DNA from: Auanema rhodensis
Taxonomy: Eukaryota; Animalia; Nematoda
Assembly: GCA_964057225.1 (NCBI GenBank)
Contig: OZ059898.1
Location: 11,408,001-11,472,000, forward strand
DNA length: 64,000 nt
Reading direction: 5' to 3'
The position numbers and the translations under genes were made by a program. The notes below the pieces were generated by a model. It searched no databases and was not told the origin of the DNA. It worked only from the letters and a program-made list of their open reading frames with translations. Below are positions 6,001 through 56,340 of this stretch, one piece after another. The stretch's first letter is position 1; each line of letters begins with the position of its first letter.

Positions 6001-7568
6001 ATTTCTAGTCAATCTCCTTAACCACTCGGACATGACTGCTTGTAGAAGGAATATACTTTACAGTTGAAGTGATAGACGCAATGATTTCGTACATATTTGA
6101 ATTAGATCAAAAAGCATCAAAAAATTGATTTCTCATGCAAAATATTCGCAGTCAGCAGGATTCGAACCTACGCGGGCAGAGCCCAATTGATTTCTAGTCA
6201 ATCTCCTTAACCACTCGGACATGACTGCTTGTAGAAGGAATATACTGTAAAGTTAAAGTGATAGACGCAATGATCTCGTACTTTTTGGAATAAGATCAAA
6301 TGGGATCAAAAAATTGATTTCTCATGCAAAATATTCGCAGTCAGCAGGATTCGAACCTACGCGGGCAGAGCCCAATTGATTTCTAGTCAATCTCCTTAAC
6401 CACTCGGACATGACTGCTTGTAGAAGGAATATACTTTACAGTTAAAGTGATAGACGCAATGATCTCGTACTTTTTGGAATAAGATCAAAAGGGATCAAAA
6501 AATTGATTTCTCATGCAAAATATTCGCAGTCAGCAGGATTCGAACCTACGCGGGCAGAGCCCAATTGATTTCTAGTCAATCTCCTTAACCACTCGGACAT
6601 GACTGCTTGTAGAAGGAATATACTTTACAGTTAAAGTGATAGACGCAATGATCTCGTACTTTTTGGAATAAGATCAAAAGGGATCAAAAAATTGATTTCT
6701 CATGCAAAATATTCGCAGTCAGCAGGATTCGAACCTACGCGGGCAGAGCCCAATTGATTTCTAGTCAATCTCCTTAACCACTCGGACATGACTGCTTGTA
6801 GAATGAATACACTTTACAGTTAAAGTGATTGACGCAATGATCTCGTACTTTTTGGAATAAGATCAAAAGGGATCAAAAAATTGATTTCTCATGCAAAATA
6901 TTCGCAGTCAGCAGGATTCGAACCTACGCGGGCAGAGCCCAATTGATTTCTAGTCAATCTCCTTAACCACTCGGGCATGACTGCTTGTAGAAGGAATATA
7001 CTTTACAGTTAAAGTGATAGACGCAATGATCTCGTACTTTTTGGAATAAGATCAAAAGGGATCAAAAAATTGATTTCTCATGCAAAATATTCGCAGTCAG
7101 CAGGATTCGAACCTACGCGGGCAGAGCCCAATTGATTTCTAGTCAATCTCCTTAACCACTCGGACATGACTGCTTGTAGAAGGAATATACTTTACAGTTA
7201 AAGTGATAGACGCAATGATCTCGTACTTTTTGGAATAAGATCAAAAGGGATCAAAAAATTGATTTCTGATGCAAAATATTCGCAGTCAGCAGGATTCGAA
7301 CCTATGCGGGCAGAGCCCAATTGATTTCTAGTCAATCTCCTTAACCACTCGGACATGACTGCTTGTAAAAGGAATATACTTTACAGTTAATGTGATAGAC
7401 GCAATGATCTCGTACTTTTTGGAATAAGATCAAAAGGGATCATAAAATTGATTTCTCATGCAAAATATTCGCAGTCAGCAGGATTCGAACCTACGCGGGC
7501 AGAGCCCAATTGATTTCTAGTCAATCTCCTTAACCACTCGGACATGACTGCTTGTAAAAGGAATATAC
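1..7568 (-). tRNA. Tandem array of tRNA-Ser(AGA) genes, segment 1: 40 copies, 189-bp unit; array runs off the left edge
   Basis: Minus-strand unit contains the 82-nt GCAGTCATGTCCGAGTGGTTAAGGAGATTGACTAGAAATCAATTGGGCTCTGCCCGCGTAGGTTCGAATCCTGCTGACTGCG, with a long variable arm and AGA anticodon. Copies start at 99, 288, 477 and so on; the last ends at 7551. A TTTT Pol III terminator lies about 5 nt downstream. Confidence 0.97.
99..180 (-). tRNA. tRNA-Ser(AGA), first complete copy, shown as representative
   Basis: Cloverleaf with acceptor GCAGTCA/TGACTGC, A box TGTCCGAGTGG, B box GGTTCGAATCC and anticodon loop CTAGAAA. Confidence 0.97.
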
Positions 7569-7934
7569 CGTTCCATTCGGAGACTCTATATATGTAACTG
7601 CAGGGTTAGAGCCAGACCGACTAGAGGAATGAGGAATGGCACCGCCTACCCTCATGCCCCTATTCGGGAGTTCGCCCCTTTGCAAGCCCATGGACGGTTT
7701 GCATCTAACTTAGTTAATCTTATATATTAGTCTTTGTCTTGTAAATGTAGTTTACTTTATACTTGTGTTATTGGATTGTAATGATATTGTATTGTGTATA
7801 ATAAACCTATATATTTCCTTATCTTATGTAATCCTTATGCTCTGTTTCCATACCGCTACACTTATGGAATACTATACGCGTAGTTGAGCAGACTACAATG
7901 GTCTGTTCAATATACGTAGGAGCATAATGGAACG
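7569..7934 (+). repeat. 5' LTR of element 1
   Basis: Begins CGTTCCATT and ends AATGGAACG (9-bp inverted termini). AATAAA near 7800. About 8 substitutions versus the 3' LTR by eye. Confidence 0.97.
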
Positions 7935-7955
7935 TGGAGGTTCCACCTCGAACTC
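7935..7955 (+). promoter_or_regulatory. Primer binding site complementary to the tRNA-Gln 3' end
   Basis: TGGAGGTTCCACC is the reverse complement of GGTGGAACCTCCA (tRNA-Gln 3' end, recalled sequence). It is followed by TCGAACTC, complementary to the T-loop region. Confidence 0.85.
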
Positions 7956-8196
7956 ATTTTTGTCGCAAAAACTCGCATAAAAAGTCCATATTTTGATATC
8001 TAAATTAAAACTTCCTCCACGGTTAGCAACATAATGAGGGCGCCAACTTGTATAAGGTGCAGGTACAAGGGATCTCTCTTTTAGAGAGCTAGGACTATAT
8101 AATTTTGAAATTTCACCCGCTGTCCCCACTCATAAAACCGTCTGAGTGTCCACCCTTATAATACCGTATCCTGCACCGCTTCTCTTGCATTTTTTT

Positions 8197-8546
8197 TGAG
8201 GACGTTTGGATCGAAATAGGGGACAATTTCACCAAACGAAATTTTGATTACATTATTATTTGGCAACGAGGAGTTAGAATGAAATTTTGAAAGCGCACAA
8301 AGTTTAATATTTTATTGTGGTCAGGACTAGAGATTTGAAAGTTAAATTCAGGCGTAAAAGAGCATGCTAACTAAATATTTTTGCGGGAGCCGTTATTCGG
8401 TTTTTATTTTTTTTTTTTTGATTGTGAGAATAGACCACACTAGTCCGAAAAATCCTGGCACAAATTTTATTGCCTGTCAGGTCATTTTGGCGAAAGCACA
8501 TGGGCCACGGATGTTTTCTTCTCCGTAGAATGTGTCACCTTCCTCA
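8197..8546 (+). ncRNA. Conserved structured cis-RNA in the 5' leader with a pseudoknot; function unknown
   Basis: TGAGGA/TCCTCA closing stem. Interleaved stems GTGGTC/GACCAC and GGACTAG/CTAGTCC. Homologues with compensatory changes at 29224-29678 (+) and 45829-46214 (-). Confidence 0.65.
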
Positions 8547-8922
8547 GCTCATTTTTGTTGCTAACATCATAAGATATTCCCACACACCTACCGTAGTCTT
8601 CATATTGTAATATTCTATAAATTAGTAAAATGGTTTAAAGAAAAAAAAAAAATTGCGTTTTATAAACGAGCTTTGGTCTCAGTCCATTAGTAAAATGAGC
8701 AATCTTTTTAAATATTCTCGGAATCTCATTAGCATGCCAAAATCATTCCGGAAAAGAATCGCCCACGGCTTTTAATAATCAACGTGCACATGAGCCATTT
8801 TCCCAAGGCGCACGCACTCCTTCTTTATTAATAAGCTCGACCAAAGTTTGTGTTATGGAAAAAAAAAAAGAGAGAGAGAACAAATGAGTGAAATTAAGTA
8901 TTTATTATATATAAAACAATTG

Positions 8923-9523
8923 TTAAAAGCCCCATTTAAAATGCAACTGTCTCACAAATTCTATAGGCTGTGAGATGGGCTCATTGCTAGGCTCTAAATA
9001 CTGCGAATACTCTGAATCCGCAGAGGTCCTTAGCAATAAGCCCATAGGAGACTGTTCATAAAACAAATAAATTTTAAACAAAATTTTAGACATATAATCA
9101 TAAAAATCATGAGGCTTATGCTCATACCAATTCCAAGGGGATGCGATTAAATTGGGGTTTCCATACCAATGCGCGCACAAATCGGTGAGGCACCATCGCC
9201 CAATAGCTGCAACCTCATCCGCTATTTCTTGCATTAGGGAGAAATTCACTAATCCCCTCCCCAGATAATGCATTTTTAAATCCTCGATAAACTAAAATTT
9301 TTTTTTTATTATTAATATAACATGTTTCTTTGCTTTAACCAACCATCTTAATCATGTCTGGGTGAGGCCTATAAGCTAACACTTCGTCTTGATCATACAA
9401 GACGAGGTCAGCGTACAGCTTTCTCAAGACAAAAGTCATTCCCGATAGACCTTCATAAGCCATTCTTTGATTATTTTTTTTTCTTTCTTCTTCAGCTCTA
9501 CAAATATAAAGAATCTTATGCAT
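8923..9523 (-). CDS. Putative two-exon antisense accessory gene of element 1 (~182 aa, unknown function)
   Basis: Exon 9523-9344, 52-nt intron GTTGGT...TTTTAG (9343-9292), then exon 9291-8923 joining in frame (..MIKM|FIEDLKMHYL..). AATAAA about 17 nt after the stop. TTTTCAG acceptor just upstream of the ATG. Confidence 0.6.
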
Positions 9524-9883
9524 AAAAAGGGGACATAAAACGACTGAAAATCTCTCTCATATTTTCAAGAATTCAATTAGAGTAAAGTATTAAGATTGAG
9601 GCTGGAAAGAGCGAAGACCAACAAAATTTATAATTGATGAACATCTGTGAAAAAGAATAAAGAAAAGAGAATACGGTAGATAGGCGGAGCCAGATCTCAG
9701 GCCAAGATTTTAAAACTCTTTCTCATCTAATAACGATTCTCGGCGAAAGACGCCACGTCTCAATCTTCAAACTTTTCTTACTTTTCCCTATAACCGACCT
9801 GAATTTCTTGTCACTCATTCAACGTCAACATCCCCCATATAACGAAACACTCGCGGTTTTTCCAAACCAAGAGTGATTCCAAA

Positions 9884-11710
9884 GTGGCACGAAGATACTC
9901 TTCGGCCGTCCCTGCTCTATACCCTTCTGAGTCCAGTGACGACATCGCAGTCGCCAGTCGAACCAGAAGCCGCACTCGACTCCTCAGTGTTCAGATTGAA
10001 GAGCCTGAACAAGAGGTAAAACCCAAAGTCGAGAAAACCTTCATTCCTCGAGAAGGCACGTATTCACCTCCGGACAACACCGAGGAGGACCCTGATTTCT
10101 ATATTCAGGACTACAATATTCAAACTTCAGCTTCAACTCCAAAGGTACACTCTTTTAAAAGTAATAAAAAGATTCAAAAAATTCAAAAACCAAAACAAAT
10201 AACCTCTAATACTTCACCAGCCACTCCCCACCTAAACTTATCAACTTTATCAGTTAATACTGATAACGATCTTGCATCTTCTTTTGAACTAACTCTAACA
10301 CCGCAGGCATTTTCCACTCCGATAGAAAACTCACAACTTAATAAAACCTCATCTCTCACTATTCGCAAATCACCCTTATCAGTTATCACTGATAAGCTTG
10401 ATTCGAAAAAGCTTGATTCTAAAAAAATTAATAAAAGAAAAACTAATACACCGCGTAGGCGCTCAACCTCTAATAATCCCGTAGAACCAAATCAGGAAAT
10501 TACCGAAGTTTTGCCCTTATCACTAACTACTGATAAGTTCAAAAGTAAGAAATCTTTAACAGCTCGCTTAATAAAAGTTTTGAATTTGTCTCCAGGGGAG
10601 GTAACAACAGAACAAGTTGATAACTCTCTTCACGTATCCTCCAACCCGACCCTTAATAAGTCAGATAGCGCTATACCCAGCTCAAGCGTATCAATACATT
10701 CGACGCCTCAGGCAACGAGTCGAATTATCAAACTCCCAGGGAAGCGGTTCTCCTCAGCCGCCCCTACCATTAGTTATCCAACATCTGGTAACTCGAAAAA
10801 GGGAGGTAAGAATTTAACGGCGAGAAGCTCAGGCAGTAAAGGGATTACGTCATCTCGCACATACCCTGAGGATATACCAACCATGACGGAGACACCACGT
10901 CTTCCGGGAGCTGGTAAATCTACCATTGCGCACGCATTAAGCTCACCTTATTGCCCCATATACGACGGAAGTCGTAACTTTAGAGATTTCGTGGCAAAGT
11001 TTAATACCTTTTCTAACGCCTTAGGCTTAGTGATGCCCGAAAGACTAACTATTTTACCATTACTATTGAAAAATGATAGAGCAGAGGAAGCTTATTTAGA
11101 GCTACCTGACAAGGTCAGAACAGCTGGACCTTGGGTTACCCTAATAGAAGAGTTAACATCCAAGCTGTGTCCCGAATACAATCAAGACCCTGCCCTTATC
11201 ACACTTCAAAACAGCACTCAAGGCGATTTATCAATTGATGGTTTTGCACAAACGTTAAGAAACCTCAGCTTAAATGCTTTCTCTAATAGTGATACTCATA
11301 AAGATCACATTCTGAGGTCCACATTTTTGAGAGGCTTGAAAAATACGATACGCCCAGGGGTAATTCGAGCAAAACCCAAAACTTTTGCTGAGGCTGTTGA
11401 TAGTGCTCGCTGGGAGGAATCAATTGCAAACCAAGTAGCAGACCCTCAGGCGCTATTGGTTAACGCAATTGAAAGAACTTTCCCCCCGCGCAGAAACAAT
11501 GGTGGGAGAGGTATGGCAAGAGGTTATCAATCTTTTAATAATAAAAATTATCAAAATTATAATAATTATAACAATTATCATCCAAACTTTCAAAACAATC
11601 AAAATTATCATAAATTTTCAAAAAATCAAAAAGGCTGGAATTTCCAAAACCCATTTGCTAGGAACCGCAATTTTGGTGACCGCGGTCGAAATTATCAGAA
11701 TCAAAATTAA
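9884..11710 (+). CDS. gag: Gag with long S/T/K-rich N-terminal extension, capsid-like domain and N/Q/Y/RG-rich C-terminus; no CCHC knuckle
   Basis: Retrotransposon CA motifs PIYDGSRNFRDF..F, Q-G-x-S-I..F...L..L...AF and FLRGL..IR..V....PKTF.EAV..A..EE. Frame open from about 9803; first ATG only at 10883. Confidence 0.9.
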   Translation: MARRYSSAVPALYPSESSDDIAVASRTRSRTRLLSVQIEEPEQEVKPKVEKTFIPREGTYSPPDNTEEDPDFYIQDYNIQTSASTPKVHSFKSNKKIQKIQKPKQITSNTSPATPHLNLSTLSVNTDNDLASSFELTLTPQAFSTPIENSQLNKTSSLTIRKSPLSVITDKLDSKKLDSKKINKRKTNTPRRRSTSNNPVEPNQEITEVLPLSLTTDKFKSKKSLTARLIKVLNLSPGEVTTEQVDNSLHVSSNPTLNKSDSAIPSSSVSIHSTPQATSRIIKLPGKRFSSAAPTISYPTSGNSKKGGKNLTARSSGSKGITSSRTYPEDIPTMTETPRLPGAGKSTIAHALSSPYCPIYDGSRNFRDFVAKFNTFSNALGLVMPERLTILPLLLKNDRAEEAYLELPDKVRTAGPWVTLIEELTSKLCPEYNQDPALITLQNSTQGDLSIDGFAQTLRNLSLNAFSNSDTHKDHILRSTFLRGLKNTIRPGVIRAKPKTFAEAVDSARWEESIANQVADPQALLVNAIERTFPPRRNNGGRGMARGYQSFNNKNYQNYNNYNNYHPNFQNNQNYHKFSKNQKGWNFQNPFARNRNFGDRGRNYQNQN

Positions 11711-11752
11711 AATGGGTATCAAAGAAGCCATAATGCATCACAAAATCAAGAA

Positions 11753-14700
11753 ATGAGCAATAATAGACAGAGAAATAACAGTACCTTTAGGGGAAATAAC
11801 AACAATAGAGGCAGAGGTAGAGGCTCAAGAGTCAATAATTTGACTCTGATATCTCCTTTGACTTTAGCCGTAGCTTTATCAGTAATCTTATCACTGGTTA
11901 CAACAGCTGAAGCATACCAGCTATGTACTAAAGCTACTGGAGGAGCCCTTCTCCGTCCCCCATCTCTCCGAAAATGCTTATTACCACCAATAAAGCATAT
12001 CTTACGAACAAAAGTTCATCTTTATACAAGGAATCAAACGGCACATGAATGGGATGCATGGAGATGCTCCAAAGAAATTCATAAAATGTGTATCAGAGAC
12101 CTTTTGTTCCTTAGAGATACCAATACAACGATAGCGAGAATTGAAAAGATACCAGCTGCAGAATGCAGACTGGCAGTGAGAGATAGAAGATGGAATTGGA
12201 GTGAATTAAAGAAGATCGACAGCATAACATATGCAACTGACGAGCCTTCCTTCTCGCCAGGCCGATCTTTTAATAATGAACTATGTGAAGAGAAAGCCAG
12301 ATTGGTTATCGAAAGAGGGGTTATGACACGGATGCCAGATGAAACTATAATCTCCAATTTAATACTAAATACTGAAGGATGCTTAGCGCATCATGGAGAA
12401 TGTGCATCAGATACCTCAATCATCATATGGGAGAAACAGCCTTATGAATATCGATGCATCTATATCGACATGAGTGAATATGATGCGATAATTGGAAACG
12501 GCATTATTCTGTTACCAACCACTCAATCAGCCCTTGTAATCGATCAAAAAGAGATACCGAAGCAAATATCTTCTTGTTTTAAACAGCCAATCTTCCACAC
12601 CACAACTGGCAATTACATTCTCTTACCACAGTACCCAAATGACACCAATATCCATGTTTTAATAGAGAGAGAATATAAGAAACTTCCGGCGAAAAGAGAT
12701 AAAAGAGCAATTGCGGAATGCACGGTTGAATTAAACAAGGAGTGGATACAAAAACAGGAAGATTTTGAAACTTTAATATTAAATATTTGTCCTTATCCTT
12801 TCTTACGACCGGTGATGAGTAATCCTGGTATTTATCAGATAATACCGCTTATAAAGGCCAGACGAGCTGTCAACCCTTCATATTCAATTATTGATTGGGT
12901 TTCAGCACATCCCGAGAAGTTTTATTTCTTCTTAAGAAGTCCCGTATCTGATAAATCCATACAACGTTTCCTTCAAACATACGAAATACACGACCCTGAG
13001 GAAGCAATACTTTATTTTCTTGCGCAAAAGGAACTGGCAGCAACCACTCGCGGCGCTATACGGTATTTAACCTCAAAACAATTATTAGAACAGATAGGTG
13101 ACAGATTAACAGCACACGAATTTGACGAAAAACTACTAGAAAAGGACGGATCCTACCGCGAAAGAGCCGAAAGCATAGCGATGGAGCTAGCTTATACACC
13201 GGTAATATTTGAAAACAATCTGTCGGTACCATCAAGGCAAGAGGTTTTAAAATCCTTTGTGAACATGCCGCCTATCCGACCAACTTTAACAACTGACAAT
13301 GCTGATGAGCGTATAGTACTTAGAAATACACTTTACTTATACCATAACTTGATGACATTGCGAGTAATAAGGCCAAATAAAACAGCAGCAGCCGTAGATG
13401 ATGAAAAGTTCCGACAATTAACAATCAATGTGCCAGATACCAACAAACTATATCGAGATAAAGATTCGAACTACGGTATATCGATAGGCCCCCACCCTCG
13501 CATTCAAACTCCAAGCGCGGATACACGCCAGCTACTTATAAAAACATTTTTACCACTGTTAGAGGATATTGAAACACCGCCTTATCTGACTAGAAGACTG
13601 TCATTAACGACAACAACGGACAAACCCGCTTCACTAGTTCAGGAGACAACTATAAGCTATACGACTCGGATTCCGACGACAACCATAGTTGACACGACAA
13701 CAGCCGTGATAACTACGACTCTCTCGCCAACAACATTAGCAACAGTCACTGACACGGCGTCACGAACCTTAAGGAAACAAAGAACATCATCTCCACCCGT
13801 AGAAACCAGAGAAATTCAGGCTCAGGCAACGTATACAGCGTCAAAAGTGAACAACGAAATACAATTCAACCTCAACGTATCTCGCAGAATAGCTCAAGAT
13901 CATCTACAATATACAACAACACTCATACAAGAAGAGCTACAGAAACATTTTATGGAATCTTATGAATCCATATGTGAGATTCAAAATAGATACCTCGAGC
14001 TATGGCGTTCTATTTCACACATAGAACCCACAATAGCAATGAGGACTATTTTAGGAAGAGAGGATATTGCAGCCCGTTTCGTAGGCAGCGATATAGTTCA
14101 TGTTCATATATGCTTACCTCTTCAACCTAAAGCTGTTTATCATAATCATAAGATCAATGATACATGCTATTTGGAAACACCAGTAATAACAGAAGATGAG
14201 AGATTATATTTTGCTGCTCCAGGATCAAGAGACTTATTAACACATGGAAAAGAGATAGATTGCGAACATGTACCAACAGATGTGTACTATCAAAATGGAG
14301 AATGGATAAATATAAATGGATCGGTTGAAGTAAAACCAATATCACTCTTTGATAAAGCGCAATACCACCAATTAACACCTTTAAAGTTCACAGGCGCTAA
14401 CTTATACACCAATTTATCATTGAGAGTTTACTCAATGTCAACAGCTATTGCATATGGAGCAAGTTTAGCATCCATACGACAGAACCATGTTTTACATACT
14501 ATTCACAACGATCCAAAGATTACGTCAGCCTTTAATCTTTTGAAAAAGGGCAGTGACTATATCTCTAAAGCAGCTGAGTTCACAACTTCCGCCTGGACTA
14601 GCGTAAAACATTTTCTAATAGGTTCAATTGAGAGAACACTCATCTTTATAGGATCAATAGTCACGATTGCCGCAGTATTAATAATTCTTTTCGTTGTTGT

Positions 14701-15676
14701 TAAATTTTGGTTCTTCAGAGCCACTCCACTAACCGTAATGCATGTCCGTGAAATAGATAATGAGCCCCCAGGCTATGAAGAAACATTGGAACTTGTAAGC
14801 CGCCCAGACCAACAGATGCCAGATAACATCATGAAGCAATACTATCCTGCGTTAGTAACATTTATTCCAATCGCAATACCATTTGTTGCTTCTATTGCAT
14901 CAGCGGAAACAAAGTTACCATTAATATATATATCAGTTGAAGATAAACTGATTTTAGCTTTATGGGATTCAGGCTCATCAGTGTCATATGTTAGGCTCTC
15001 CACCCTCAAATATCTGAACATGGCCGAAAATGTCAAGAAGAGACATTTAGTAGCGATGGCAGCCAACAAGTCCACTTTCACATTTTATGGAAAGATAAAT
15101 CTTGTAATTGAAATTGCCGGCTACGAGATCGAACACACCTTTTTGGTCTCAAACGATCATGACTGTCCTGCTCCCGCTTTAATTGGACTAGATTTCATGA
15201 AAGCGCTTGACAGCGAAAACATCGACGTCAGCCTTAAACCATCCAAGAAGAGGTTGGAGATTGGAAACAATGCCATCCCATTAATAGGAAACGAATCTAT
15301 TAAGCATACGGAGATAACTGTGAATATCATTAATTTAAGAACAAAAACATTAAAGCCTGATGAAGAGGCACCTATCCCAATAAAGACAGATAAACCACTA
15401 GAATCTAACGAAGTGGTTGTCTTAGGGGATAGTGGAAGCGCATTAAAATCATTATATCCAACTGCGTTTCGTGATACCAGTGGAGTATATGTTATGTTCC
15501 GTAACGATACCGATGAAACAATAGCTATGGAAGCTAATTCAGTCATCGGACAGGCAATAATTGGAGAAATTCCGGCTTGTGAACCCTTTAAACATAAGCC
15601 AATTCTACCATATGTTCCGCCAGAAGCCGATTGGGAGAGTAAACTACCATATTTTCCAAGAGACTTCATATCTTGA
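11753..15676 (+). CDS. env: Envelope glycoprotein (class III, gB/chuvirus-like) fused in frame to an aspartic protease; same frame as gag, separated by one TAA
   Basis: Signal peptide ending TAEA|YQLC (11915). Cys-rich ectodomain with N-glycosylation sequons, furin-like RDKR (12695-12706) and RKQR, and a Thr-rich mucin stretch. gB-like block ICEIQN..LW..I..IEP...LGR.DIAARF.G.D...V..C...CY...PV. TM at about 14636-14715, PPGY tail, then protease ALWDSGS (14966) and LIGLDF. Confidence 0.88.
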   Translation: MSNNRQRNNSTFRGNNNNRGRGRGSRVNNLTLISPLTLAVALSVILSLVTTAEAYQLCTKATGGALLRPPSLRKCLLPPIKHILRTKVHLYTRNQTAHEWDAWRCSKEIHKMCIRDLLFLRDTNTTIARIEKIPAAECRLAVRDRRWNWSELKKIDSITYATDEPSFSPGRSFNNELCEEKARLVIERGVMTRMPDETIISNLILNTEGCLAHHGECASDTSIIIWEKQPYEYRCIYIDMSEYDAIIGNGIILLPTTQSALVIDQKEIPKQISSCFKQPIFHTTTGNYILLPQYPNDTNIHVLIEREYKKLPAKRDKRAIAECTVELNKEWIQKQEDFETLILNICPYPFLRPVMSNPGIYQIIPLIKARRAVNPSYSIIDWVSAHPEKFYFFLRSPVSDKSIQRFLQTYEIHDPEEAILYFLAQKELAATTRGAIRYLTSKQLLEQIGDRLTAHEFDEKLLEKDGSYRERAESIAMELAYTPVIFENNLSVPSRQEVLKSFVNMPPIRPTLTTDNADERIVLRNTLYLYHNLMTLRVIRPNKTAAAVDDEKFRQLTINVPDTNKLYRDKDSNYGISIGPHPRIQTPSADTRQLLIKTFLPLLEDIETPPYLTRRLSLTTTTDKPASLVQETTISYTTRIPTTTIVDTTTAVITTTLSPTTLATVTDTASRTLRKQRTSSPPVETREIQAQATYTASKVNNEIQFNLNVSRRIAQDHLQYTTTLIQEELQKHFMESYESICEIQNRYLELWRSISHIEPTIAMRTILGREDIAARFVGSDIVHVHICLPLQPKAVYHNHKINDTCYLETPVITEDERLYFAAPGSRDLLTHGKEIDCEHVPTDVYYQNGEWININGSVEVKPISLFDKAQYHQLTPLKFTGANLYTNLSLRVYSMSTAIAYGASLASIRQNHVLHTIHNDPKITSAFNLLKKGSDYISKAAEFTTSAWTSVKHFLIGSIERTLIFIGSIVTIAAVLIILFVVVKFWFFRATPLTVMHVREIDNEPPGYEETLELVSRPDQQMPDNIMKQYYPALVTFIPIAIPFVASIASAETKLPLIYISVEDKLILALWDSGSSVSYVRLSTLKYLNMAENVKKRHLVAMAANKSTFTFYGKINLVIEIAGYEIEHTFLVSNDHDCPAPALIGLDFMKALDSENIDVSLKPSKKRLEIGNNAIPLIGNESIKHTEITVNIINLRTKTLKPDEEAPIPIKTDKPLESNEVVVLGDSGSALKSLYPTAFRDTSGVYVMFRNDTDETIAMEANSVIGQAIIGEIPACEPFKHKPILPYVPPEADWESKLPYFPRDFIS

Positions 15677-18584
15677 TCTAGAGAATGCTGATCTCACGAA
15701 AGAAGAAAAACATGAGCTTACAAAAATAATTGAAAGCCACCGTGAGGCATTTCTTAACGAGGACAGGAAAATAGGCTTATTTAAAGGTCCTATAGAGCAT
15801 ACCATACCATTGAGAACAGATATGGATATGCCAAAGCCGAGAATAACACGTATTCCCTTAGGAAAACAGGAAGAAATTGAAAAACAAGTCAAAGAAATGC
15901 TTGAGCAAGGCATAATAGAGCCTTCTACATCTCTATTTAATAGCCCTGTAGTACTAGTTAAGAAGAAAGATGACACGTATAGGTTTGTGACAGATTTTCG
16001 AGCTTTAAATAATGTCACACGCAAGCAAACTTATGTCATTCCAAGCATTTCTGACATAGTTGATTTGGCAGCAGGCGCCCAATTTTTCTCAAACTTCGAT
16101 TTAGTGTCAGGATTTTTTCAAATATCCTTGAGAAAATCAGATCGACCACTAACAGCATTTACGACCACATCCGGCACATACCAGTACAAACGGATGCCGA
16201 TGGGCCTTTGTGGAGCCCCTCATACCTTTCAAACAGCAGTAAGGTATTTGCAAAGTAAATGTTCTTGTAAACTATTTGTTTATTTGGACGATCTATTAGT
16301 TATATCTGATACAAGAGAACAACATCTCAAAGATATCGATGATTTACTGCAAGCAGTAGAAGAATTGGGAATGAAGATAAAGCTTAAGAAATGCGCTTTT
16401 GCTCAACCAGAAGTGAAATTTCTAGGACTTATTGTAGGACGTCAAGGTATAAAACCTGACCCTCAAAAAGTCGCCGCCATACAAGATTATCCGGCACCAA
16501 AGAATGCAACAGGTGTACGAGCATTCTTGGGAATGGTTGGATTCTTTCGCAAATTCATGAAAGATTTTGCACGTATCGCAAGCCCTTTATACGATCTGAC
16601 AAAGGCAGATACTGAATTCAAATGGGAAAACAAACATAAAGAAGCTTTAGACCTCCTTAAAAGAAGTTTAATACAGGCACCCGTTTTAAGCCCACCCAAA
16701 TCGGACCGCTTGTTTATAGTTGAAAGCGACGGTAGTAACATCGCCATAGGTGCTGTATTATTACAACCGGAAGATCCAAAACAACCTCTGAAAAATCTAC
16801 ACCCTATCGCATTTGCAAGCAGAAAACTAGTTAAAGCCGAACGTAACTACGCACCAATCGAGATAGAAGCATTAGGCCTTGTATATGCATTAAATCAATT
16901 CCGTACATACATTCTTGGAACTCATACTATATGTATTACGGACCATCGACCCCTTACCAGCTTAATGACACGCAGAGACTTATTTGGTCGTCTTGCGAAG
17001 TTCCAGCTGGTCATCCAAGAATATGATATTGAAATAAAATATCGCGCAGGCCAATTAAATAAAGTATGCGATGCTCTATCTCGATATATAGGTGAAGAAG
17101 CTAACGATGCTAAGCCGGAAACAAAGAAGAAGAAAATAGAAGAAATTCACATTAACGCCATAAATACACCAACAATAAAGGAAATTCAACTAAACACCCC
17201 TTGGATTAAACGGACGATAGCGGAGATTGAATATAGAGCACAAAAGAACATGACAGCTAATGACAGATATTGTGTCATAAATGACTTGCTCTATACAAAA
17301 CCAACAGACAAAAAGCCACAACCCGCTATCGTAATACCACAAGAACACCCCATAATTGAGGAAATAATCAAAGTTTTTCATGAGGATCCTACAATTGCAG
17401 CACATCAAGGAATTATTAAAACAAAAGAAGCAATTCTAAGAAGATTCTATTGGACAAATATGCAGAACGACATTACTAAATTCATCAAGAACTGCATTAA
17501 ATGTGCTCAAAGAAAAAAAGATCCACATTCCATGACGGTACAACCAATAGGTCATTTTGAGATACCAAGCAAGCCATTTGAACGAGTCCACATGGACGTA
17601 ATGGGACCATTTCCCCCTTCAAAAAGAAACTGTACCTACGTCATTACCATGCAAGACGCATTTACAAAATGGTCAACAACAATTGCTGTACCACAAATAA
17701 CAACGGAAATCACAATTGACCGATTTTTAAGACATTTCGTTTACATTTTTGGACCACCACATCGCTTGATCACCGATAGAGGTTCGAACTTTGTATCCAA
17801 AAAGTTCGAAGAAATGTGTACTAAACTTGGAATCAAACATGAACCAACACTACCACACCAAAAGAACTCAAATGGACAAGTGGAAAGACTTCACAGAACC
17901 CTCGAAGAAGGATTAACCCACTACTTAAAAGAGGACCTTAGTGACTGGGATACTGTATTACCAAAAATCACTTTTGCTATAAACAATATTCAGCACGCGA
18001 CTACAGGGATTGCGCCATACATTGCATTATTTGGTAAAGAATGCAGAATGTCAATGGACGCTGAATTACCAGAAACGATCACCAAAATTCAAGAAATTTC
18101 TGAAGAATTACTCCAAAGAAGACCAGATATGGACAAGAGAGACGAAATAATAAAGAACCGCATAGCTAAAAATCAAGAAAATGCGAAAAAGAAGAAGGAT
18201 AGAACGCAAAGAGCACACCATAGAGACATTCGACCGGGCGACATGGTGATGACGACCATAAAATCACACCAAATCGGCCAAAAGCTTCGGAAAAGCTATG
18301 ATGGACCATACGAAGTCATCAACGTAGAAGGATCAAAAGTTCAAATCAGAAATTCATCAGGAAAACTACAAGATATCCACAAAGATAACTTGAAAATCTT
18401 CTCTCCTGCTTCACAAAACATCTCTTACAACACTCGCGCAAGGTTTCGAGAAAGTCAAGCAGAAGAAGATAGCGACATCGAAATAATAGAAGTGATCAAC
18501 AGGAACAACAAGGATAGCATAGATACAGAGCCAGAAGATGAAAATGAAGACGAAATATGGCTTCCGAGGAATGAAGAAGAATAA
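15561..18584 (+). CDS. pol: Pol: reverse transcriptase, RNase H and integrase; +1 frame relative to env-PR, true join near 15650-15665
   Basis: RT motifs SPVVLVKK, DFRALN, DLVSGFFQI, MPMGL and YLDD (16281). RH motifs ESDGS..AIGAVL, EIEAL and TDHRPL. IN HHCC (H..HQG..C..C), D-D(35)E (HMDV, ITDRG, VERLHRT) and GPY motif. No chromodomain; acidic tail. Confidence 0.97.
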   Translation: MEKFRLVNPLNISQFYHMFRQKPIGRVNYHIFQETSYLDLENADLTKEEKHELTKIIESHREAFLNEDRKIGLFKGPIEHTIPLRTDMDMPKPRITRIPLGKQEEIEKQVKEMLEQGIIEPSTSLFNSPVVLVKKKDDTYRFVTDFRALNNVTRKQTYVIPSISDIVDLAAGAQFFSNFDLVSGFFQISLRKSDRPLTAFTTTSGTYQYKRMPMGLCGAPHTFQTAVRYLQSKCSCKLFVYLDDLLVISDTREQHLKDIDDLLQAVEELGMKIKLKKCAFAQPEVKFLGLIVGRQGIKPDPQKVAAIQDYPAPKNATGVRAFLGMVGFFRKFMKDFARIASPLYDLTKADTEFKWENKHKEALDLLKRSLIQAPVLSPPKSDRLFIVESDGSNIAIGAVLLQPEDPKQPLKNLHPIAFASRKLVKAERNYAPIEIEALGLVYALNQFRTYILGTHTICITDHRPLTSLMTRRDLFGRLAKFQLVIQEYDIEIKYRAGQLNKVCDALSRYIGEEANDAKPETKKKKIEEIHINAINTPTIKEIQLNTPWIKRTIAEIEYRAQKNMTANDRYCVINDLLYTKPTDKKPQPAIVIPQEHPIIEEIIKVFHEDPTIAAHQGIIKTKEAILRRFYWTNMQNDITKFIKNCIKCAQRKKDPHSMTVQPIGHFEIPSKPFERVHMDVMGPFPPSKRNCTYVITMQDAFTKWSTTIAVPQITTEITIDRFLRHFVYIFGPPHRLITDRGSNFVSKKFEEMCTKLGIKHEPTLPHQKNSNGQVERLHRTLEEGLTHYLKEDLSDWDTVLPKITFAINNIQHATTGIAPYIALFGKECRMSMDAELPETITKIQEISEELLQRRPDMDKRDEIIKNRIAKNQENAKKKKDRTQRAHHRDIRPGDMVMTTIKSHQIGQKLRKSYDGPYEVINVEGSKVQIRNSSGKLQDIHKDNLKIFSPASQNISYNTRARFRESQAEEDSDIEIIEVINRNNKDSIDTEPEDENEDEIWLPRNEEE

Positions 18585-19283
18585 CAACAAGATAATGCTA
18601 CGTTATTTAAATTATTGTAACAAAATAACGATGAATTAGAAAAAAAAAAATTAATGTTAAATAACATTCAAAATAAAAATAGCATTTAATAGAGATTGAG
18701 AAAGGAAAAATAAGGCAAATTCTAAACGAGGAGATGTTATGACTAATGGTTCCAAGTTACCGTAATCCTATGCGGACTAGAGGACATTTTGACAACCATC
18801 CGAGCTCCATGTGCCTCTCCAAATAAGATGAGATAAACACTGGTAGGCGTATCAACCACAATTTCATCTTAAGTGGTAGTCTCCATTAGTAATCAAGGAT
18901 TCACTCTGGGAGACATATGGAGACACATTATTAAATCATAATCTCGGTTCAATTTAGAAATGAGTACTTCTTGAGACCATTAGTCAAAATAATAACATAT
19001 TCCCATTCATTACTAGCCCCTTATTCTACAATCTCTATTAGGAAATGCTTGAATATTAAGATAATTAATTTATGAAATTAATAATATTCTAATTCATCGT
19101 CACTTCATATTATATCGAACCCTTCTTATAAATTATTGTAATTTTGTTTTTATACTAATTAAAACTCTATCATACTATAGTTATTGTGAAGCTAAAACAA
19201 TTGAACTCTAAAACTCAGTTACATATAAGCCCAAATTTTTGTTTAAAATATCGCGAGGTCGCGACAATCTTTGAAAAAGGGCA

Positions 19284-19649
19284 CGTTCCATTCGGAGACT
19301 CTATATATGTAACTGCAGGGTTAGAGCCAGACCGACTAGAGGAATGTGGAATGGCACCGCCTTCCCTCATGCCCCTATTCGGGAGTTCGCCCCTTTGCAA
19401 GCCCATGGACGGTTTGCATCTAACTTAGTTAATCTTATATATTAGTCTTTGTCTTGTAAGTATAGTTTACTTTATCCTTGTGTTATTGTATTGTAATGAT
19501 ATTGTATTGAGTGTAATAAACCTATATATTTCCTTATCTTATGTAATCCTTATGCTCTGTTTCCATACCGCTACACTTATGGAATACTATACGCGTAGTT
19601 GAGCAGACTACAATGGTCTGTTCAATATACGTAGGAGCATAATGGAACG
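19284..19649 (+). repeat. 3' LTR of element 1
   Basis: 366-bp direct repeat of 7569-7934, preceded by the PPT and a TCGCG-AGGT-CGCGA hairpin. Confidence 0.97.
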
Positions 19650-19653
19650 ATAC

Positions 19654-28562: not shown

Positions 28563-31500
28563 CGTTCCATTCGGAAATCAATACGTAGCAGGCGGGTTAG
28601 AATCAGACGACATGAGGCTGAGAGAGGACGACACGCCCTTCATATGGAACACAGACTTCAGCTTTGCCTCATGGAATGACTATGGATGGTTGGTCTTCCT
28701 TTCTTAGCTCTCTTTCACTTTATATCTTTATGTAGACTTATATAACTTATTGTAATCATGTAGACATAATAAACCTTTCTTTCTCGAGTCTTATGTTTAT
28801 CCATTATGCTCTTTATCTACCGCTACATCTGGAATACTATCACACTCATCTTGTAGGCTTTATTGGTCTATAGGATCGACGTGAGAGCATAACGGAACGT
28901 GGAGGTTCCACCTCGAACATTTTATCTTGATTTCTTGACTATTTTCTCTTATATTTCGTTATTTTCAATACAATTCATTGAATCTGAATTCTCTTATATC
29001 TCTAAACCATCTACTCCATGTCTTAACACAAAACGGTGGGGCCAACAACGTTTAAAAGGGAACAGATGCAAGGACCACTCCTTTTGGAGATGGATTTTAT
29101 ATTTTTTGAAACTGAAGTTATATTTTCCCGTTTGTTCACAATTTTCTGTCTGTCTGAACCCAACAATTTTTATATCCTTGCTGTTAACATCGAATACTCT
29201 GTTACCCGAACTCGAAGCATTTTTGAGGACCCTAGGATGAATTAGTGAACAAATTCACCCAAGGATAATTTTTATTGAGATTTATGCCCACACTTTCTCC
29301 TTTTAAGGATTGATTTTGGCTTCGAGGAAAGAATAGCCACGGTTATTTCTTTATTTTGTGGATGAAACAATTTTGCGCACCAAATTGAGATTATTTCATA
29401 TTTTGCGATCAGGACTATTTTATTTTGCGTTACATTTCTGTTCAGACAACTTTTTGCCATTAACATCCAAAAATATTTTGATAACGCATTGAATTTACAC
29501 GGGAAACCTCACCTAAATGGGAGGAATATTATGAAAAGTGAATTTTAAGATCGCTATAGTCCGAAAAATCCTGTACAATTTTACGAACTGAATTATTATT
29601 AGTGATTGTCTATCAGGTCGTGTTGGCTTAAGCATATCAGTTTGGATTTTCTCCCCTTACTATATGTCACCTTCCTCATACCGTTATTGTTGTTTTGAAG
29701 CATAAGACTCATTCCTAAACACCATAATTCTTTAAATATAGTTATTGTAATCTTTAGTCATCTATTCCTAGCCATAATTTTAAAACTAGATTTCTGATCA
29801 TGATGGGACTAAGGTACTCATTCGTTTTCCAAATTGCTTCCTTAAAAAGTAATGCTATTACGAATGTACATTACGAAAACCGCTAAAATCCTTTGAACAT
29901 TTACCAAAGTCCATTTTCGTGGCATTTTCGATCACTCGTGAGTCCAAGAAGATCAGAATCGTCAGAAAAAGAAAAAAAAATGGGAATAAGGACTAATGAG
30001 ATTGCTCAGGCATCAATCAAGTGAGCACTGAACATTTTTGAACATATACAAACTGGTTGAATTATATACATTTAAGAATATTAAATTGGAAAGCGAATAA
30101 AGTCCAAATTTTCATACGGTAGTAGGCGGATCTCTGTTAAAGGCCACAACTTAGATTCATTCCTTAACGCCGACTATACAAACCAGTTACTCACAGCTTT
30201 CTCCCTCCTTTTCCAAAACTCCTTATCCATAACACTCATTAACGTCTCAAAATCCCCCACGTTACTAAACACTCAAGGTTTTTCCAAACCAAGAGCGCTA
30301 CCAAAGTGGATAAGCGATTCCGATCAGCTGTACCTCTCAGTACACGAACTGATTTTGATCTGCGAGACTCAGCTCCACTCACCAGAAGCCAAGCTCGCGC
30401 GCAGAGCATCGCTATAATCGAAGACGAGCAGAAAGGCGAGCACAAAACCGAAAAATTCTTTACTCCTCGTGCAGGCACTTATTCACCTACTGAACGATTA
30501 AGCGACGAGGATCACGTACCACCAGGAGGAGAAGAAACATCCATCATAGTCGAAGAACAAACACCAGTTACTGCTAAAAAGTCATCAACGTTGAAGGAAA
30601 CATGGTACAACTCAAGAATCCATTTGGAAAAATTCAAGACATACACAAAGACAATCTCAAACTTTTGCGATCAAATACAACGACTTATGACACGGACGAC
30701 GACAGCGATATTGAGATCATAAAAGTCATAAATGGTAACGATAACTATGACTCTAGTGAAGAAACAGAACCAGAAGACCCATCGGACCAAAATTGGCTAC
30801 CACCAAGAAGAAGACGATGAAAGAAATAATTTCGAGATTGATAAAATTATTGTAAAACCTTGTATCAACTCTCTTTTAAAAAACCAGAGCTATTCATATT
30901 ATTATATCATTGAAAAACTTGAGTAAGACGAGATGTAAGCTAATAATCAAAAAGCATTTCAGTTTCAAAGCATATATGATTATAAAACTTCATCAATTTC
31001 AAATAATTTCCCGTAAATAAAGAAGAAATGAAAGATAAGAGACATTATATTGCATATTCATCTGAGCAACAGTCCTTATCAAGTAGTTAATGATTCAATT
31101 CCGGAAATTATATGGGATTTAGTTTAATTTTTTTTATTATTACAATTCGCTTTGAATACGCTGAAGAAACATGCTAGCTCCATCGATAATATAGCATGAC
31201 TCTCGTTTCTCTATACTCAAACAAGTTAGACATGCAGCGTCGTGCCTAAAAAGCTATTTTGCGCACTCTCGCTGACAAAATATAGCCCTGGTATTCTAAA
31301 AGATTGTTTTATTCCTTAATATTCATGTATTTTCAAATAATTTTTATTAAATTCTTTTCAGATAATATTGTTTAACATTATATTGTAATTTATCTTTACT
31401 ATTTTTATGTTAACATTATAATTTTTATTTTTTAAAACTAAACCTTCTGCTACGATTGAAACAAGCCACATACTTTGCTATTCGCGAGGACGCGACATAA

Positions 31501-31854
31501 ACTCGAAAAAAATGGCACGTTCCATTCGGAAATCAATACGTAGCAGGCGGGTTAGAATCAGACGACATGAGGCTGAGAGAGGACGACACGCCCTTCATAT
31601 GGAACACAGACTTCAGCTTTGCCTCATGGAATGACTATGGATGGTTGGTCTTCCTTTCTTAGCTCTCTTTCACTTTATATCTTTATGTAGACTTATATAA
31701 CTTATTGTAATCATGTAGACATAATAAACCTTTCTTTCTCGAGTCTTATGTTTATCCATTATGCTCTTTATCTACCGCTACATCTGGAATACTATCACAC
31801 TCATCTTGTAGGCTTTATTGGTCTATAGGATCGACGTGAGAGCATAACGGAACG
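28563..31854 (+). mobile_element. Non-autonomous internally deleted LTR element (element 2, 3,292 bp) of a related but distinct subfamily
   Basis: 337-bp LTRs at 28563-28899 and 31518-31854, identical by eye. CG...CG ends, TSD CAAT and the same Gln PBS. Internal region keeps the leader, the Gag N-terminal peptide and the integrase tail only. Confidence 0.95.
30250..30820 (+). pseudogene. Gag N-terminal extension remnant joined at about 30579 to an integrase C-terminal remnant
   Basis: IPHVTKHSRFFQTKSATKV...PRAGTYSP matches element 1 IPHITKHSRFFQTKSDSKV...PREGTYSP. GKIQDIHKDNLK...DSDIEII.VIN..TEPED...WLP matches the element 1 IN tail. Confidence 0.9.
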
Positions 31855-43810: not shown

Positions 43811-46800
43811 CGTTCCGTTATGCTCCTACGTCGATAATATAAACCATTGTAGTTTATACTATGACGCGCATAGTATTCCTTGGTGTAGCGGTAAGGAATA
43901 AAGAGCATAAGGTCAATCATAAGATAAGAGAAAGAAAGGTTTATTGACGTTAAACTTCAACAATAATATACAAAGATAAAGATACAATACAATAAGATAA
44001 ATATATAAATAAAGTCTAAACTATAAGCCGTCCATGAGCTTGCTAAGAGGCGAACTCTCGACCAAGGGAACGAGGGAAGGCAGAGCCATTCCTCGGTCCT
44101 CTGGTCGTTTGGCTCTACCCCTTCAGCTACATATATGGGGAGTCCGAATGGAACGTGCCCTTTTTCAAAGATTTTTTGCGTCCGCGCGATATAAAGAGTT
44201 TTTCAGTGTATATGTAGCTGAGTTTTAGAGTGTAGGACTTTACAAAAAAAAATTAAAAGTTTCAAAATCTACATGTGGAAAGATATTTAAATAGTTTTTT
44301 AATAAGTTTCTTTATGGTATTAAGATAAAATTTGAATACAATAATAGGTTTTACGATATTTTGTAACGGAGGATTAGAAAATAATTTTACTCATTATAGT
44401 ACTGTAATAAAAGAATGGTTTTATGAGTGTTTTTTATGTGAGATAATAAGGGATTATTCAACATTTTGCGTGCATGGTTACTCGTATCCTAATGATGATG
44501 GGAATAAAGATTTTTAGTTAATAATCTATTAGTCTCCATATGTATCTCTGAATGAATCCTTGAGTACTAATGGAGGCTACCACTCAGATGAGGTGTGGCT
44601 TAGGCGCCTGCCAGTATTCGTCTCTTCTTGGAGATACATATGGAGCTCAATTTAGTGCAATAGACTATCTCTATCATCGTAAAGGACTACGGTAGCTTAT
44701 TATTTATATTATATTTACACTTATTCCTTATTTTTGGTTGTTCATTCTCTCAATCTCTCATCAAAAATTTTCTAATTCACCGTTACTTTCATTTTACAAT
44801 TTACAGAAAAGAAAAGAATGTATATAAAGTTTTTTCTGTCGTCAGCTATGATGAAGTCCGGATCTTCGTAGGTGTCGTCAGAAGGTGAATATGTGCCTTC
44901 TCGGGGAGTATAAAGCTTGTCGACTTGCGGCTTTGGCTTCTCGGCTGCTTGGTGCCGTTTTTCTATGTGAACACTGAGAAGTTGGGTACGGCTTCTGGTA
45001 CTACTTGCGACAGTATTGTCACTGTTAGTATCGGACGGGTAAAAGGCTAAGAATGTCTATGAGAATCTTTTGGCCACCTTTGTAGGACTCTTGGTTTGGA
45101 AAAACCGAGAATGGTGCGCTACGTGTGGGATGTTTACGAAAGGTGCATAAGATTCTTTTAGATGTGGGTGAGGGAGAGAGAGAGATTCAGGAGCAAAAGA
45201 ACAGTCGTGCTTCGCTGAGCGAAGCGGAGGGTAAATTCGAAGGAGTTTTTCAAATCCTGGCCAGCAATCTGACTCCGCCCATCTACCGTAAGCTTATTAT
45301 AGTTAATGATGTTTATCTCTTCTCTAAAACTATTTTTATCCACTCTTGCACTTTCCTCCAATTTTTTTTTACTGCGCTAGAATCTTTGAAAGCTTTTATT
45401 CATTTCGTACCCTTTGAACTTTTGCGACCGTTGAACATTTATTTTAGGTTTTAAACTCGGTTGCAAATCAAATACGGATATTGACTGAACAAAGCTTGTA
45501 CTCTCTGTTTTTTTCGCGCACTTTGCTCTGTTGTCGTCAAGAAAATGGCCTTTCGTGTTTTTCAATCTTGTCCTCATTCCTTTTTCCTTAAATAGCATGT
45601 TTTGCTCAAAATGTTTTCAACATTGTGCATGCTAATGAGGTTTGAGGAGAGTTATTGAAAAGGCTGTCTTTTTTCTTGATCAAAAAAAAAATAAGCCAAA
45701 GTGCGTTTTCCCAAACGAATTTCTTTTTGAGAATGAGAAAAATACGTCTATTTTTAAACATTTCCAAATTACTTAGGATTACTGTAAGAGATAAGGGGTA
45801 TCTTATGAATTGAAACAACGAAATGATTTGAGGAAGGTGACATAATCTACGGGGATAAAATCCGTAGCAGTTATGCTTCCGCCAACTTGACCTGACTGTC
45901 AATTAAGAGCTGAGAAGTCTTATTGCAGATTTACCAGGCTTTTTCGGACTAGTGTGGTCTCTTTTTATATTCAATTTATGTAACCGTTTTTGGTTTCCCG
46001 CAAAATAATATGTAAAATGATCTTTTACGTCTGAATATAATAATATTTCAAAATTCTAGTCCTGACCACAAAATATACAAAATATAATCAATTGCGCGCG
46101 TCTTATAAATTTTACTTTCAATAATCAAACTTCTCTATGCCCAAAAAAAAAATGTGAACAAGTATAATTTCTCGTTTGGTGAAATTGTCCTCTATTTCAA
46201 TCCAAACGTCCTCAAAATGGCATGAGAAGCGGTACAAGATACAATATAGAAAAGGGTGGACATTCAGACGGTTTTAAATTGAGGACGGCGGGCAAAAATT
46301 TTGTTGGTCCTATCTCGCATTTCAGCGAGATACCTTGTATCTGTACCTTAAAACAAATTGGCGCCTTCATTTTGTTGTTTCAAGTAAAAGAATTTATAAT
46401 TTAAAATGCAAAAATGGACTTTTACAATAAAAAAAATTTTTGTTCAAAAGATGAGTTCGAGGTGGAACCTCCTCGTTCCGTTATGCTCCTGCGTCCATAA
46501 TATAAACCATTGTAGTTTATACTATGACGCGAATAGTATTCCTTGGTGTAGCGGTAGGAATAGAGAGCATAAGGTCAATCATAAGATAAGAGAAAGAAAG
46601 GTTTATTGACGTTAAATTTCAACAATAATATACAAAGATAAAGATACAATACAATAAGATAAATATATAAATAAAGACTAAACTATAAGCCGTCCATGAG
46701 CTTGCTAAGAGGCGAACTCTCGACCAAGGGAACGAGGGAAGGCAGAGCCATTTCTCGGTCCTCTGGTCGTCTGGCTCTAATCCTTCAGCTACATATATGG

Positions 46801-46817
46801 GGAGTCTGAATGGAACC
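43811..46817 (-). mobile_element. Non-autonomous LTR element (element 3, ~3.0 kb), third subfamily, older
   Basis: LTRs at 46474-46817 (5') and 43811-44155 (3') with multiple mismatches. PBS (A)GGAGGTTCCACCTCGAACTC, PPT GAAAAAGGGCA, TSD ATTG/TTTG. Gag N-terminal remnant at about 44830-45135 (HSRFFQTKS..PREGTYSP) with an internal stop. Confidence 0.93.
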
Positions 46818-47010: not shown

Positions 47011-47354
47011 CGTTCCGTTATGCTCCTGCGTCGATAATATAAACCATTGTAGTTTATACTATGACGCGAATAGTATTCCTTGGTGTAGCGGTAGGAATAG
47101 AGAGCATAAGGTCAATCATAAGATAAGAGAAAGAAAGGTTTATTGACGTTAAATTTCAACAATAATATACAAAGATAAAGATACAATACAATAAGATAAA
47201 TATATAAATAAAGACTAAACTACAAGCCGTCCATGAGCTTGCTAAGAGGCGAACTCCCGACCAAGGGAGCGAGGGAAGGCAGAGCCATTCCTCGGTCCTC
47301 TGGTCGTCTGGCTCTAATCCTTCAGCTACATATATGGGGAGTCCGAATGGAACG
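47011..47354 (-). mobile_element. Solo LTR of the element 3 subfamily
   Basis: 344 bp, CGTTCC...GGAACG, flanked by ATTG on both sides. Confidence 0.95.
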
Positions 47355-55977: not shown

Positions 55978-56227
55978 TGTGGCGATCTACCACAAGTGTA
56001 TAGTATGGTTGGAAGTAAAACACAAATTGAATATGTAGAAAAGGGTTTATTGATGAATTAACAAGACAAGCACGGAATAAAATCACTGACTGCGAACGTT
56101 GAAAATGTAAGACTGATCTCTTCTCGTGGGCGGTCGTCAGCCTGAAACAAAGAGTTAGTCATGCCACATGTATAACACAACATGTGGTATGGATAAAAAT
56201 TACTTAGGAAGTTAGAAGAAAGAAGAA

Positions 56228-56276
<49 letters not shown>

Positions 56277-56340
56277 AGAAACGAATAAAACAATTGTTGA
56301 AGATAAAAAAATTATACAAACTCACTCGCTTATCGCGACA
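55978..56340. mobile_element. Solo LTR of an unrelated family (TG...CA, 5-bp TSD)
   Basis: 363 bp beginning TGTGGCGAT and ending ATCGCGACA (8/9 inverted). AAGGA is duplicated at 55973-55977 and 56341-56345, and the array resumes in register. Confidence 0.85.
56230..56272 (+). repeat. (AG)n microsatellite inside the solo LTR
   Basis: About 21 AG units. Confidence 0.95.

Follow-up and report, generated by a model that had tools for sequence, protein, structure and literature searches.

A broken Ty3/gypsy element with a predicted gB-like Env encoded between gag and protease, inserted in a tRNA-Ser array of Auanema rhodensis

Tas and Atlas are nematode BEL/Pao elements carrying as Env a captured viral fusogen, which is phlebovirus-like in Atlas; in both of them env lies 3′ of the integrase, whereas the element described here, likewise a nematode LTR element with a captured viral fusogen, has env upstream of the protease. 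A continuous gag-env-pro-pol ORF, with a metavirus RT and an Env related to the nyamivirus glycoprotein, was reportedly found by Sacco et al. in 2022 in NERV, a set of non-canonical nematode endogenous retroviruses. In the sections considered here of the work of Chary and Hayashi (eLife 2026, PMC13524379), the flipped env/pol order in nematodes is credited to Sacco et al. 2022, and elements from Nematoda, Bryozoa and Platyhelminthes are described as having only an HSV/gB-type Env, in the order GAG-ENV-POL; no mention of polyprotein topology, insertion sites, frameshift, readthrough or a single ORF was found in the same sections.

We analysed a stretch of 64,000 nt of A. rhodensis (assembly GCA_964057225.1, contig OZ059898.1, positions 11,408,001–11,472,000 of the forward strand), hereafter the window, to which all coordinates refer; features lie on the plus strand unless otherwise indicated. 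The window element is one more member of the GAG-ENV-POL layout with gB-type Env published for nematodes and, as judged from the same sections of PMC13524379, the distinct lineage suggested by a first-pass annotation of the window is not new in this respect, the order having already been published. The element resembles the 'ancient errantiviruses' of that work in its Ty3/gypsy pol, in the position of env between gag and pol and in its HSV/gB-type ectodomain, located between a signal peptide and a transmembrane helix. Compared by eye with the 18 nematode Env rows of the supplement covered here, domains I–II show the C1 cysteine spacing of Nematoda, the nearest row being Nematoda_Chromadorea_Clat_errantivirus_4, which has the same 8-Cys spacing and shares the tRNA-Gln 12-mer of the primer-binding site. 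The ectodomain had been called Cys-rich, which is overstated for 16 Cys in about 900 residues, even if their spacing fits, by eye, that of the published nematode Envs. The window copy differs from the elements in the covered part of PMC13524379 in being broken twice and in having an Env linker of ~405 aa with a helical insert.

The element, a Ty3/gypsy LTR element represented here by a broken copy, occupies 7569–19649 and has the order gag-env-protease-RT-RNase H-integrase; the limits first assigned to it (9884–18584) were too short, as they fall inside the LTR-bounded unit. Its 5′ LTR (7569–7934, 366 bp), with ends CGTTCC...GGAACG instead of TG...CA, starts 17 nt upstream of the 5′ end of a tRNA-Ser gene, and the 3′ LTR (19284–19649, 366 bp) differs from it by 8 mismatches (97.8% identity). 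A target duplication of 4 bp, ATAC, is present at 7565–7568 and 19650–19653. Directly after the 5′ LTR lies a tRNA-Gln type primer-binding site (7935–7953), the first 12 nt of which, reverse-complemented, give the Gln_UUG_CUG 12-mer entered for Clat_errantivirus_4 and Ctro_errantivirus_1 (36 nematode rows in the supplement of PMC13524379), and 18 nt of which are identical across the three related element families of the window (see below); a purine-rich tract (19272–19283) precedes the 3′ LTR. Two leader blocks (8441–8452 and 8533–8546), candidate packaging or promoter signals, are also identical in all three families. An antisense ORF in the leader (8923–9291, minus strand, 122 codons) was not counted as a gene, having neither a Pfam match nor a counterpart in families 2 and 3.

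Between positions 7000 and 22000, the stop-to-stop ORFs of the plus strand are 9803–11710 (635 aa), 11711–15676 (1321 aa) and 15561–18584 (1007 aa). The domain order gag-env-pro-RT-RH-IN initially proposed was confirmed by Pfam, with a weak gag match (Ty3_capsid in ORF1, E 0.009, below the cut-off). The aspartyl protease (14933–15202, DSG at 14966) is followed by a weak dUTPase-like segment (15344–15568; PF00692, E 0.005, below the cut-off), by reverse transcriptase and RNase H (15957–17024, YLDD at 16281) and by the H2C2 zinc finger and core of the integrase (17352–17858), all the other Pol domains being Pfam matches; the pol frame ends at 18584. The PR-RT-RH-IN order with a Ty3-like RT, together with the paired LTRs, primer site, purine tract and duplication, places the element in Ty3/gypsy (Metaviridae), and the best solved-structure relative of Pol was Ty3 Gag-Pol (E 4e-107).

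The representative search gave 293 relatives at E≤0.001, 150 of which were listed; these, with P0001 (Auanema sp.) and P0002 (C. auriculariae), make the 152 chains used for the counts. Most homologues are gene predictions, and chain continuity was taken at the protein level. The nearest named homologues came from Auanema sp. and C. auriculariae. Among the matches listed, 77 of the 152 chains lacked a pol domain; in 61 env preceded protease/pol, in 14 it followed the integrase, and a capsid, an env and a pol domain were joined in a single chain in 28 of the 152. As to the 14 with a related Env after the integrase (of 75 informative homologues among the matches listed), two alignable RTs were 23–27% identical to the window RT. 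The RT phylogeny called for by the first-pass annotation (29 rows) split 23 env-first from 6 env-last rows with support 100 and joined the window to the env-first relatives P0002, P0014 and P0026 (support 99), all carrying the Env insert. When compared with the RTs of metagenome gypsy loci (the 47 of 76 having at least 200 aa of RT), the window RT and the P0002 RT, 64% identical, paired at 100/99. No Env relative was found in viral contigs or metagenome contigs, and none of the 76 generic gypsy loci retrieved by the Pol-based metagenome scan had an env match.

The element, whole or in part, was present in 15 public runs, and contigs from four of them (X1, X4, X5 and X12) were compared with the window. 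In X1, single contigs span 10858–13316 (gag-env) and 13520–14789 and 14767–18848 (env-TM-protease-pol). It might be argued that env joined the element only recently, as a secondary insertion, or that the assembly is chimeric, which the first-pass annotation had named as findings that would refute its reading, all the more since the element lies within a hard-to-assemble tandem array. This is extremely improbable, because the env-first order recurs in 61 of the 75 chains having env and a pol domain (among the matches listed) and overlapping public contigs cover the interior, including the gag-env and env-protease junction regions; the Env insert is moreover common to the three nearest RT relatives.

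The same contigs bear on the continuity of the coding sequence, which had been described as one frame from gag to protease. Gag and env-protease do share a frame, parted by a single in-frame TAA (11708–11710) inside the Gag tail, upstream of the RG-rich stretch; RT-RH-IN is in another frame, overlapping the env-protease frame at 15561–15676 with the frame change near 15670. Neither break figured in the first-pass annotation. By nucleotide comparison, bridging contigs depart from the window at the stop in X1 and X4 (X5 and X12 being without depth) and at the frame change in X1, X4 and X5 (X12 being without depth). In addition, P0001 is a continuous 1666-aa chain from the Gag tail through Env and PR to the start of RT, using 5001 of the 5045 nt of its contig and thus leaving no room for sizeable introns, and P0002 is a single 2536-aa Gag-Env-PR-RT-RH-IN chain. 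Since public contigs differ at the two positions and relatives are continuous, the stop and the frame change, on the sequences compared, most probably arose as damage to this copy or as errors of assembly and do not represent recoding signals. A programmed readthrough and frameshift, by which a functional element would make more Gag than Env and more Env than Pol, would suit the location of the breaks near the gag/env and protease/RT borders and would resolve the 1:1:1 stoichiometry problem discussed below; it appears very improbable, given that relatives read both positions through in one frame, that the bridging contigs differ from the window and that the stop falls within the Gag tail, ahead of the RG-rich stretch. 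With two breaks, this copy cannot make the full polyprotein chain. Compared with the continuous ORF that NERV is said to have, the window copy is broken twice and P0002 is continuous.

The Env region begins with a candidate protease site, RVNNL, followed by a putative internal signal peptide (11831–11914, with a signal-peptidase site placed by eye between AEA and YQ; the hydrophobic signal-like stretch is 11831–11917). Predicted domains I–II (fusion and PH-like; 11915–12685, pLDDT mostly 85–95) are separated by a long linker from predicted domains III–V (13793–14524), which include a long central helix and the C-x2-QN block (from 13973). A transmembrane helix (14624–14740) and a PPGY motif in the Env tail (14765–14776) follow, the motif reading PPSY in the Auanema relative and being absent from that of C. 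auriculariae. The signal-like stretch, the TM helix, PPGY, the protease DSG and the C-x2-QN block were all at the places claimed in the first-pass annotation. A furin-like RDKR site (12695–12706) precedes the insert of the domain II–III linker (12707–13792), which comprises a predicted all-helical domain (confidently modelled at about 12821–13438), a T/S/P-rich stretch and a second basic site, RKQR (13772–13783). Among the matches listed, the linker, ~405 aa in the window element, ranges from 26 to 531 aa across 93 homologues, RX[KR]R is present in 40 of the 93 homologous linkers, and 12 of the 152 chains, among them the three relatives nearest by RT, carry the helical insert (12707–13600). 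No match of the helical insert was found in Pfam, in PDB sequences or in the Atlas library (best 0.84, a lead only); the fold searches reported below used the whole Env model and hardly probe it.

Env is predicted to be a gB-like class III fusogen, and this holds for both halves of the protein. By Pfam, ORF2 matched PF24664 (E 3e-15, above the cut-off) and PF00606 (E 1e-9, below the cut-off). In the profile comparison, the C-terminal half of Env matched herpes gB (best E 6e-17) and the N-terminal half four chains named 'Glycoprotein' (E 8e-5 to 3e-4), which we take to be rabies G. An AlphaFold model was built from 63 sequences, for which 61 shorter ones of the 150 listed relatives were added to the window and P0001, and reached a pLDDT of 73.7 and a pTM of 0.49, against a pLDDT of only 32.7 with 3 sequences. 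With this model, Foldseek against PDB retrieved herpes gB in all of the 38 matches listed (best E 4e-11), thus bearing out the class III fold proposed by the first-pass annotation. The top VIA-align match was HSV-1 prefusion gB (Z 10.7, rmsd 6.6, 396 aligned, model 1–817), and Chandipura G aligned with model residues 26–253 (Z 8.5, rmsd 9.1, 188 aligned). Whole-chain TM-scores to gB were low (0.16–0.27), as expected since the model is a flexible multi-domain monomer. Rhabdo-like, nyami-, chu-like and herpes glycoproteins were retrieved by the viral fold search, with a Nyavirus glycoprotein at rank 7, to be set beside the nyamivirus-related Env that NERV reportedly has.

The arrangement of hydrophobic segments is largely conserved. 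Among the matches listed, a signal-like segment lies just before Env in 38 of 41 capsid-env chains, and the 57 Env-protease linkers contain one hydrophobic segment in 51 cases, two in 4 and none in 2. The window and three relatives make up the four of 57 (among the matches listed) with a second hydrophobic stretch before the protease, which, if membrane-spanning, would leave the protease luminal. The pattern V/I-N-x-I/L, proposed as a protease site at domain borders, occurs 7 times in the three frames: the four suggested sites exist, and 3 of the 7 occurrences lie away from borders. In the homologues (among the matches listed), the motif [VI]N[ASTNV][VIL] was enriched in the three linker classes (24 vs 3.8, 36 vs 5.1 and 6 vs 1.4 in shuffled sequences, 0/300 shuffles each) and not inside domains (19 vs 23.9), which supports the protease-site proposal of the first-pass annotation, these shuffle counts not being probabilities, because the motif was set after viewing the sequences and the homologues are kin. 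The PPGY of the window is not a family trait: among the matches listed, PPxY occurs in 4 of 57 Env-protease linkers and, restricted to the last 115 aa before the protease, in 2 of 57 without enrichment (2 vs 0.86, 103/500 shuffles), and P[ST]AP, in place of which the window has PPGY, is found in 5 of 57 Env tails (vs 0.27 shuffled, 0/500).

The membrane-threaded polyprotein suggested by the first-pass annotation is thus in accordance with the topology of the homologues and does not apply to this discontinuous copy. We consider it probable (roughly 0.8) that the element belongs to the published GAG-ENV-POL type and that its unbroken relatives encode a single ER-membrane-threaded polyprotein, whose predicted gB-like class III fusogen would face the lumen and whose Gag and protease-Pol parts would face the cytosol. 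The cytosolic Gag would end in an internal signal peptide, cut on the luminal side by the host signal peptidase, so that Gag would stay membrane-anchored and be separated from Pol during synthesis, an anchored-capsid logic that parallels flavivirus C-prM. One TM helix would bring the chain back to the cytosol, with protease, RT and integrase still joined to the Env tail on that side; protease monomers could then meet as Env trimerises and buds, and cutting at V/I-N-x-V/I/L sites would release Gag, protease, RT and integrase, while furin-like cleavage at RDKR may prime Env. Pol would be packaged via Env and not via Gag, which would imply a membrane-budding step in every cycle. The expected 1:1:1 output of Gag, Env and Pol is, to our knowledge, unlike that of other retroelements; it would need unexplained regulation and counts against the polyprotein mechanism.

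As an alternative, the same element may replicate intracellularly, with Env used for ER/endosomal budding or for short-range soma-to-germline transfer, and with Pol entering particles independently of Env, through a spliced or other product. The patchy occurrence of late-domain-like motifs among the matches listed (P[ST]AP in 5/57 and, in the last 115 aa, PPxY in 2/57) would agree with this, as would, from the part of PMC10309623 considered, the second product that Cer1, a gypsy element of C. elegans, makes by splicing. Such a reading seems distinctly unlikely, as most homologues retain the signal and TM segments and no coding-region joint was found among the joints listed for X12, with thin coverage; X12 is RNA by guess only, hence its patchy cover says nothing on expression.

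From its first Met, gag (10883–11707) comprises a capsid-like domain and an N/R/G-rich tail, and its frame is open for 360 codons ahead of this Met, including an ATG-less frame of 351 codons (9830–10882). Related ATG-less frames are located from 30252 onward in family 2 and on the minus strand from 45131 in family 3. In all three families conservation with a third-position bias covers the first ~90 codons, counted from an ATC that they share (differences by codon position 30/31/52, 25/16/48 and 31/25/41). Upstream, as far as the nearest stop, none of the frames contains an ATG in the three families, and in families 1 and 2 the stretch from the in-frame stop to the conserved ATC has no AG. Translation of an extended Gag from a non-AUG codon is the simplest reading of these frames and is likely, judging from the codon pattern, even if splicing, as in Cer1, may instead supply the start. 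A block of 19 nt at 9855–9873 is invariant in the three families, which suggests an overlapping RNA signal. No report of a non-AUG gag start in such elements was found in the literature searched.

What had been annotated as a flanking 189-bp satellite is a tandem array of 151 tRNA-Ser(AGA) genes (99–46922, minus strand) with a 189-bp unit, 21 gene variants and 122 identical genes. All four LTR-bounded insertions, belonging to three related families with LTRs 77–85% identical to one another, are contained in this array. Besides the element described above, family 2 (28563–31854) is internally deleted, with no env and only the tail of pol, and has identical LTRs, a CAAT duplication and a position 43 nt upstream of a tRNA-Ser gene; family 3 (43811–46817, minus strand), also internally deleted, has LTRs 96.8% identical and lies ~24 nt downstream of a tRNA-Ser gene, beside its T-run. 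A solo LTR of family 3 (47011–47354, minus strand), with the duplication CAAT, occupies the same position of the repeat unit as the family 3 insertion. In one X5 contig, an LTR is followed by 400 letters not matching the element interior. Further along the window, 15 tRNA-Gly(TCC) genes are found at 47880–48577 and 54231–56460, mostly in a 179-bp tandem unit, and no LTR end of the three families was found among them; host genes with short introns lie on both strands at 57000–62900, one minus-strand gene being Q-rich.

All insertions fall in spacers (17 and 43 nt upstream and ~24 nt downstream) and none inside a tRNA gene, a pattern not significant alone, the chance of three spacer hits being 0.16. 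According to the part of PMC5911963 considered, DGLT-A inserts 13–33 nt upstream and Skipper-2 8–23 nt downstream of tRNA genes, so that the positions 17 nt upstream and ~24 nt downstream fall in or next to these windows. Unlike a Ty3-type element, with its single precise position at the tRNA transcription start, the window families use three positions; moreover, Ty3, DGLT-A and Skipper-2 live in yeasts and amoebae, and the same part of PMC5911963 mentions no Env for them. The clustering is no less likely to reflect passive accumulation among repeat blocks than targeting, since the A. rhodense genome, in the portion of 10.64898/2026.08.27.747507 considered, has 19,554 tRNA genes and huge, partly germline-restricted tRNA arrays, and its eliminated DNA is TE-rich. 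The occurrence of the element and of two related families within one tRNA array is possibly a new point, as the literature searched gave no report of nematode LTR elements in tRNA arrays.

On the sections of the GAG-ENV-POL literature considered here, the gene order only adds one member to a published group, and the open interest is in how such elements work. The clustering in the tRNA array, the packaging of Pol through the Env tail, the non-AUG extension of Gag and the Env insert are unproven leads. Taken together, they would describe a clade of enveloped nematode gypsy elements targeting tRNA-gene arrays, in which translation of an extended Gag begins at a non-AUG codon and Pol is packaged via the Env tail; a helical domain peculiar to the clade, flanked by two furin-like sites, could serve in receptor binding, with the class III fusogen standing alone. 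This combination is rather unlikely to hold as a whole; if true, it would be an animal, Env-bearing counterpart of Ty3, DGLT-A and Skipper-2. For the polyprotein mechanism, the homologue set supplies concrete cut-site candidates. Should Gag be separated from Pol by signal peptidase while the chain is being made, the enzymes would have to reach particles attached to the tail of Env, which is not how retroviruses and Ty3 bring them in. If, in turn, the clustering reflects targeting, tRNA-gene targeting, described in yeasts and amoebae, would also be a trait of a retrovirus-like element in an animal.
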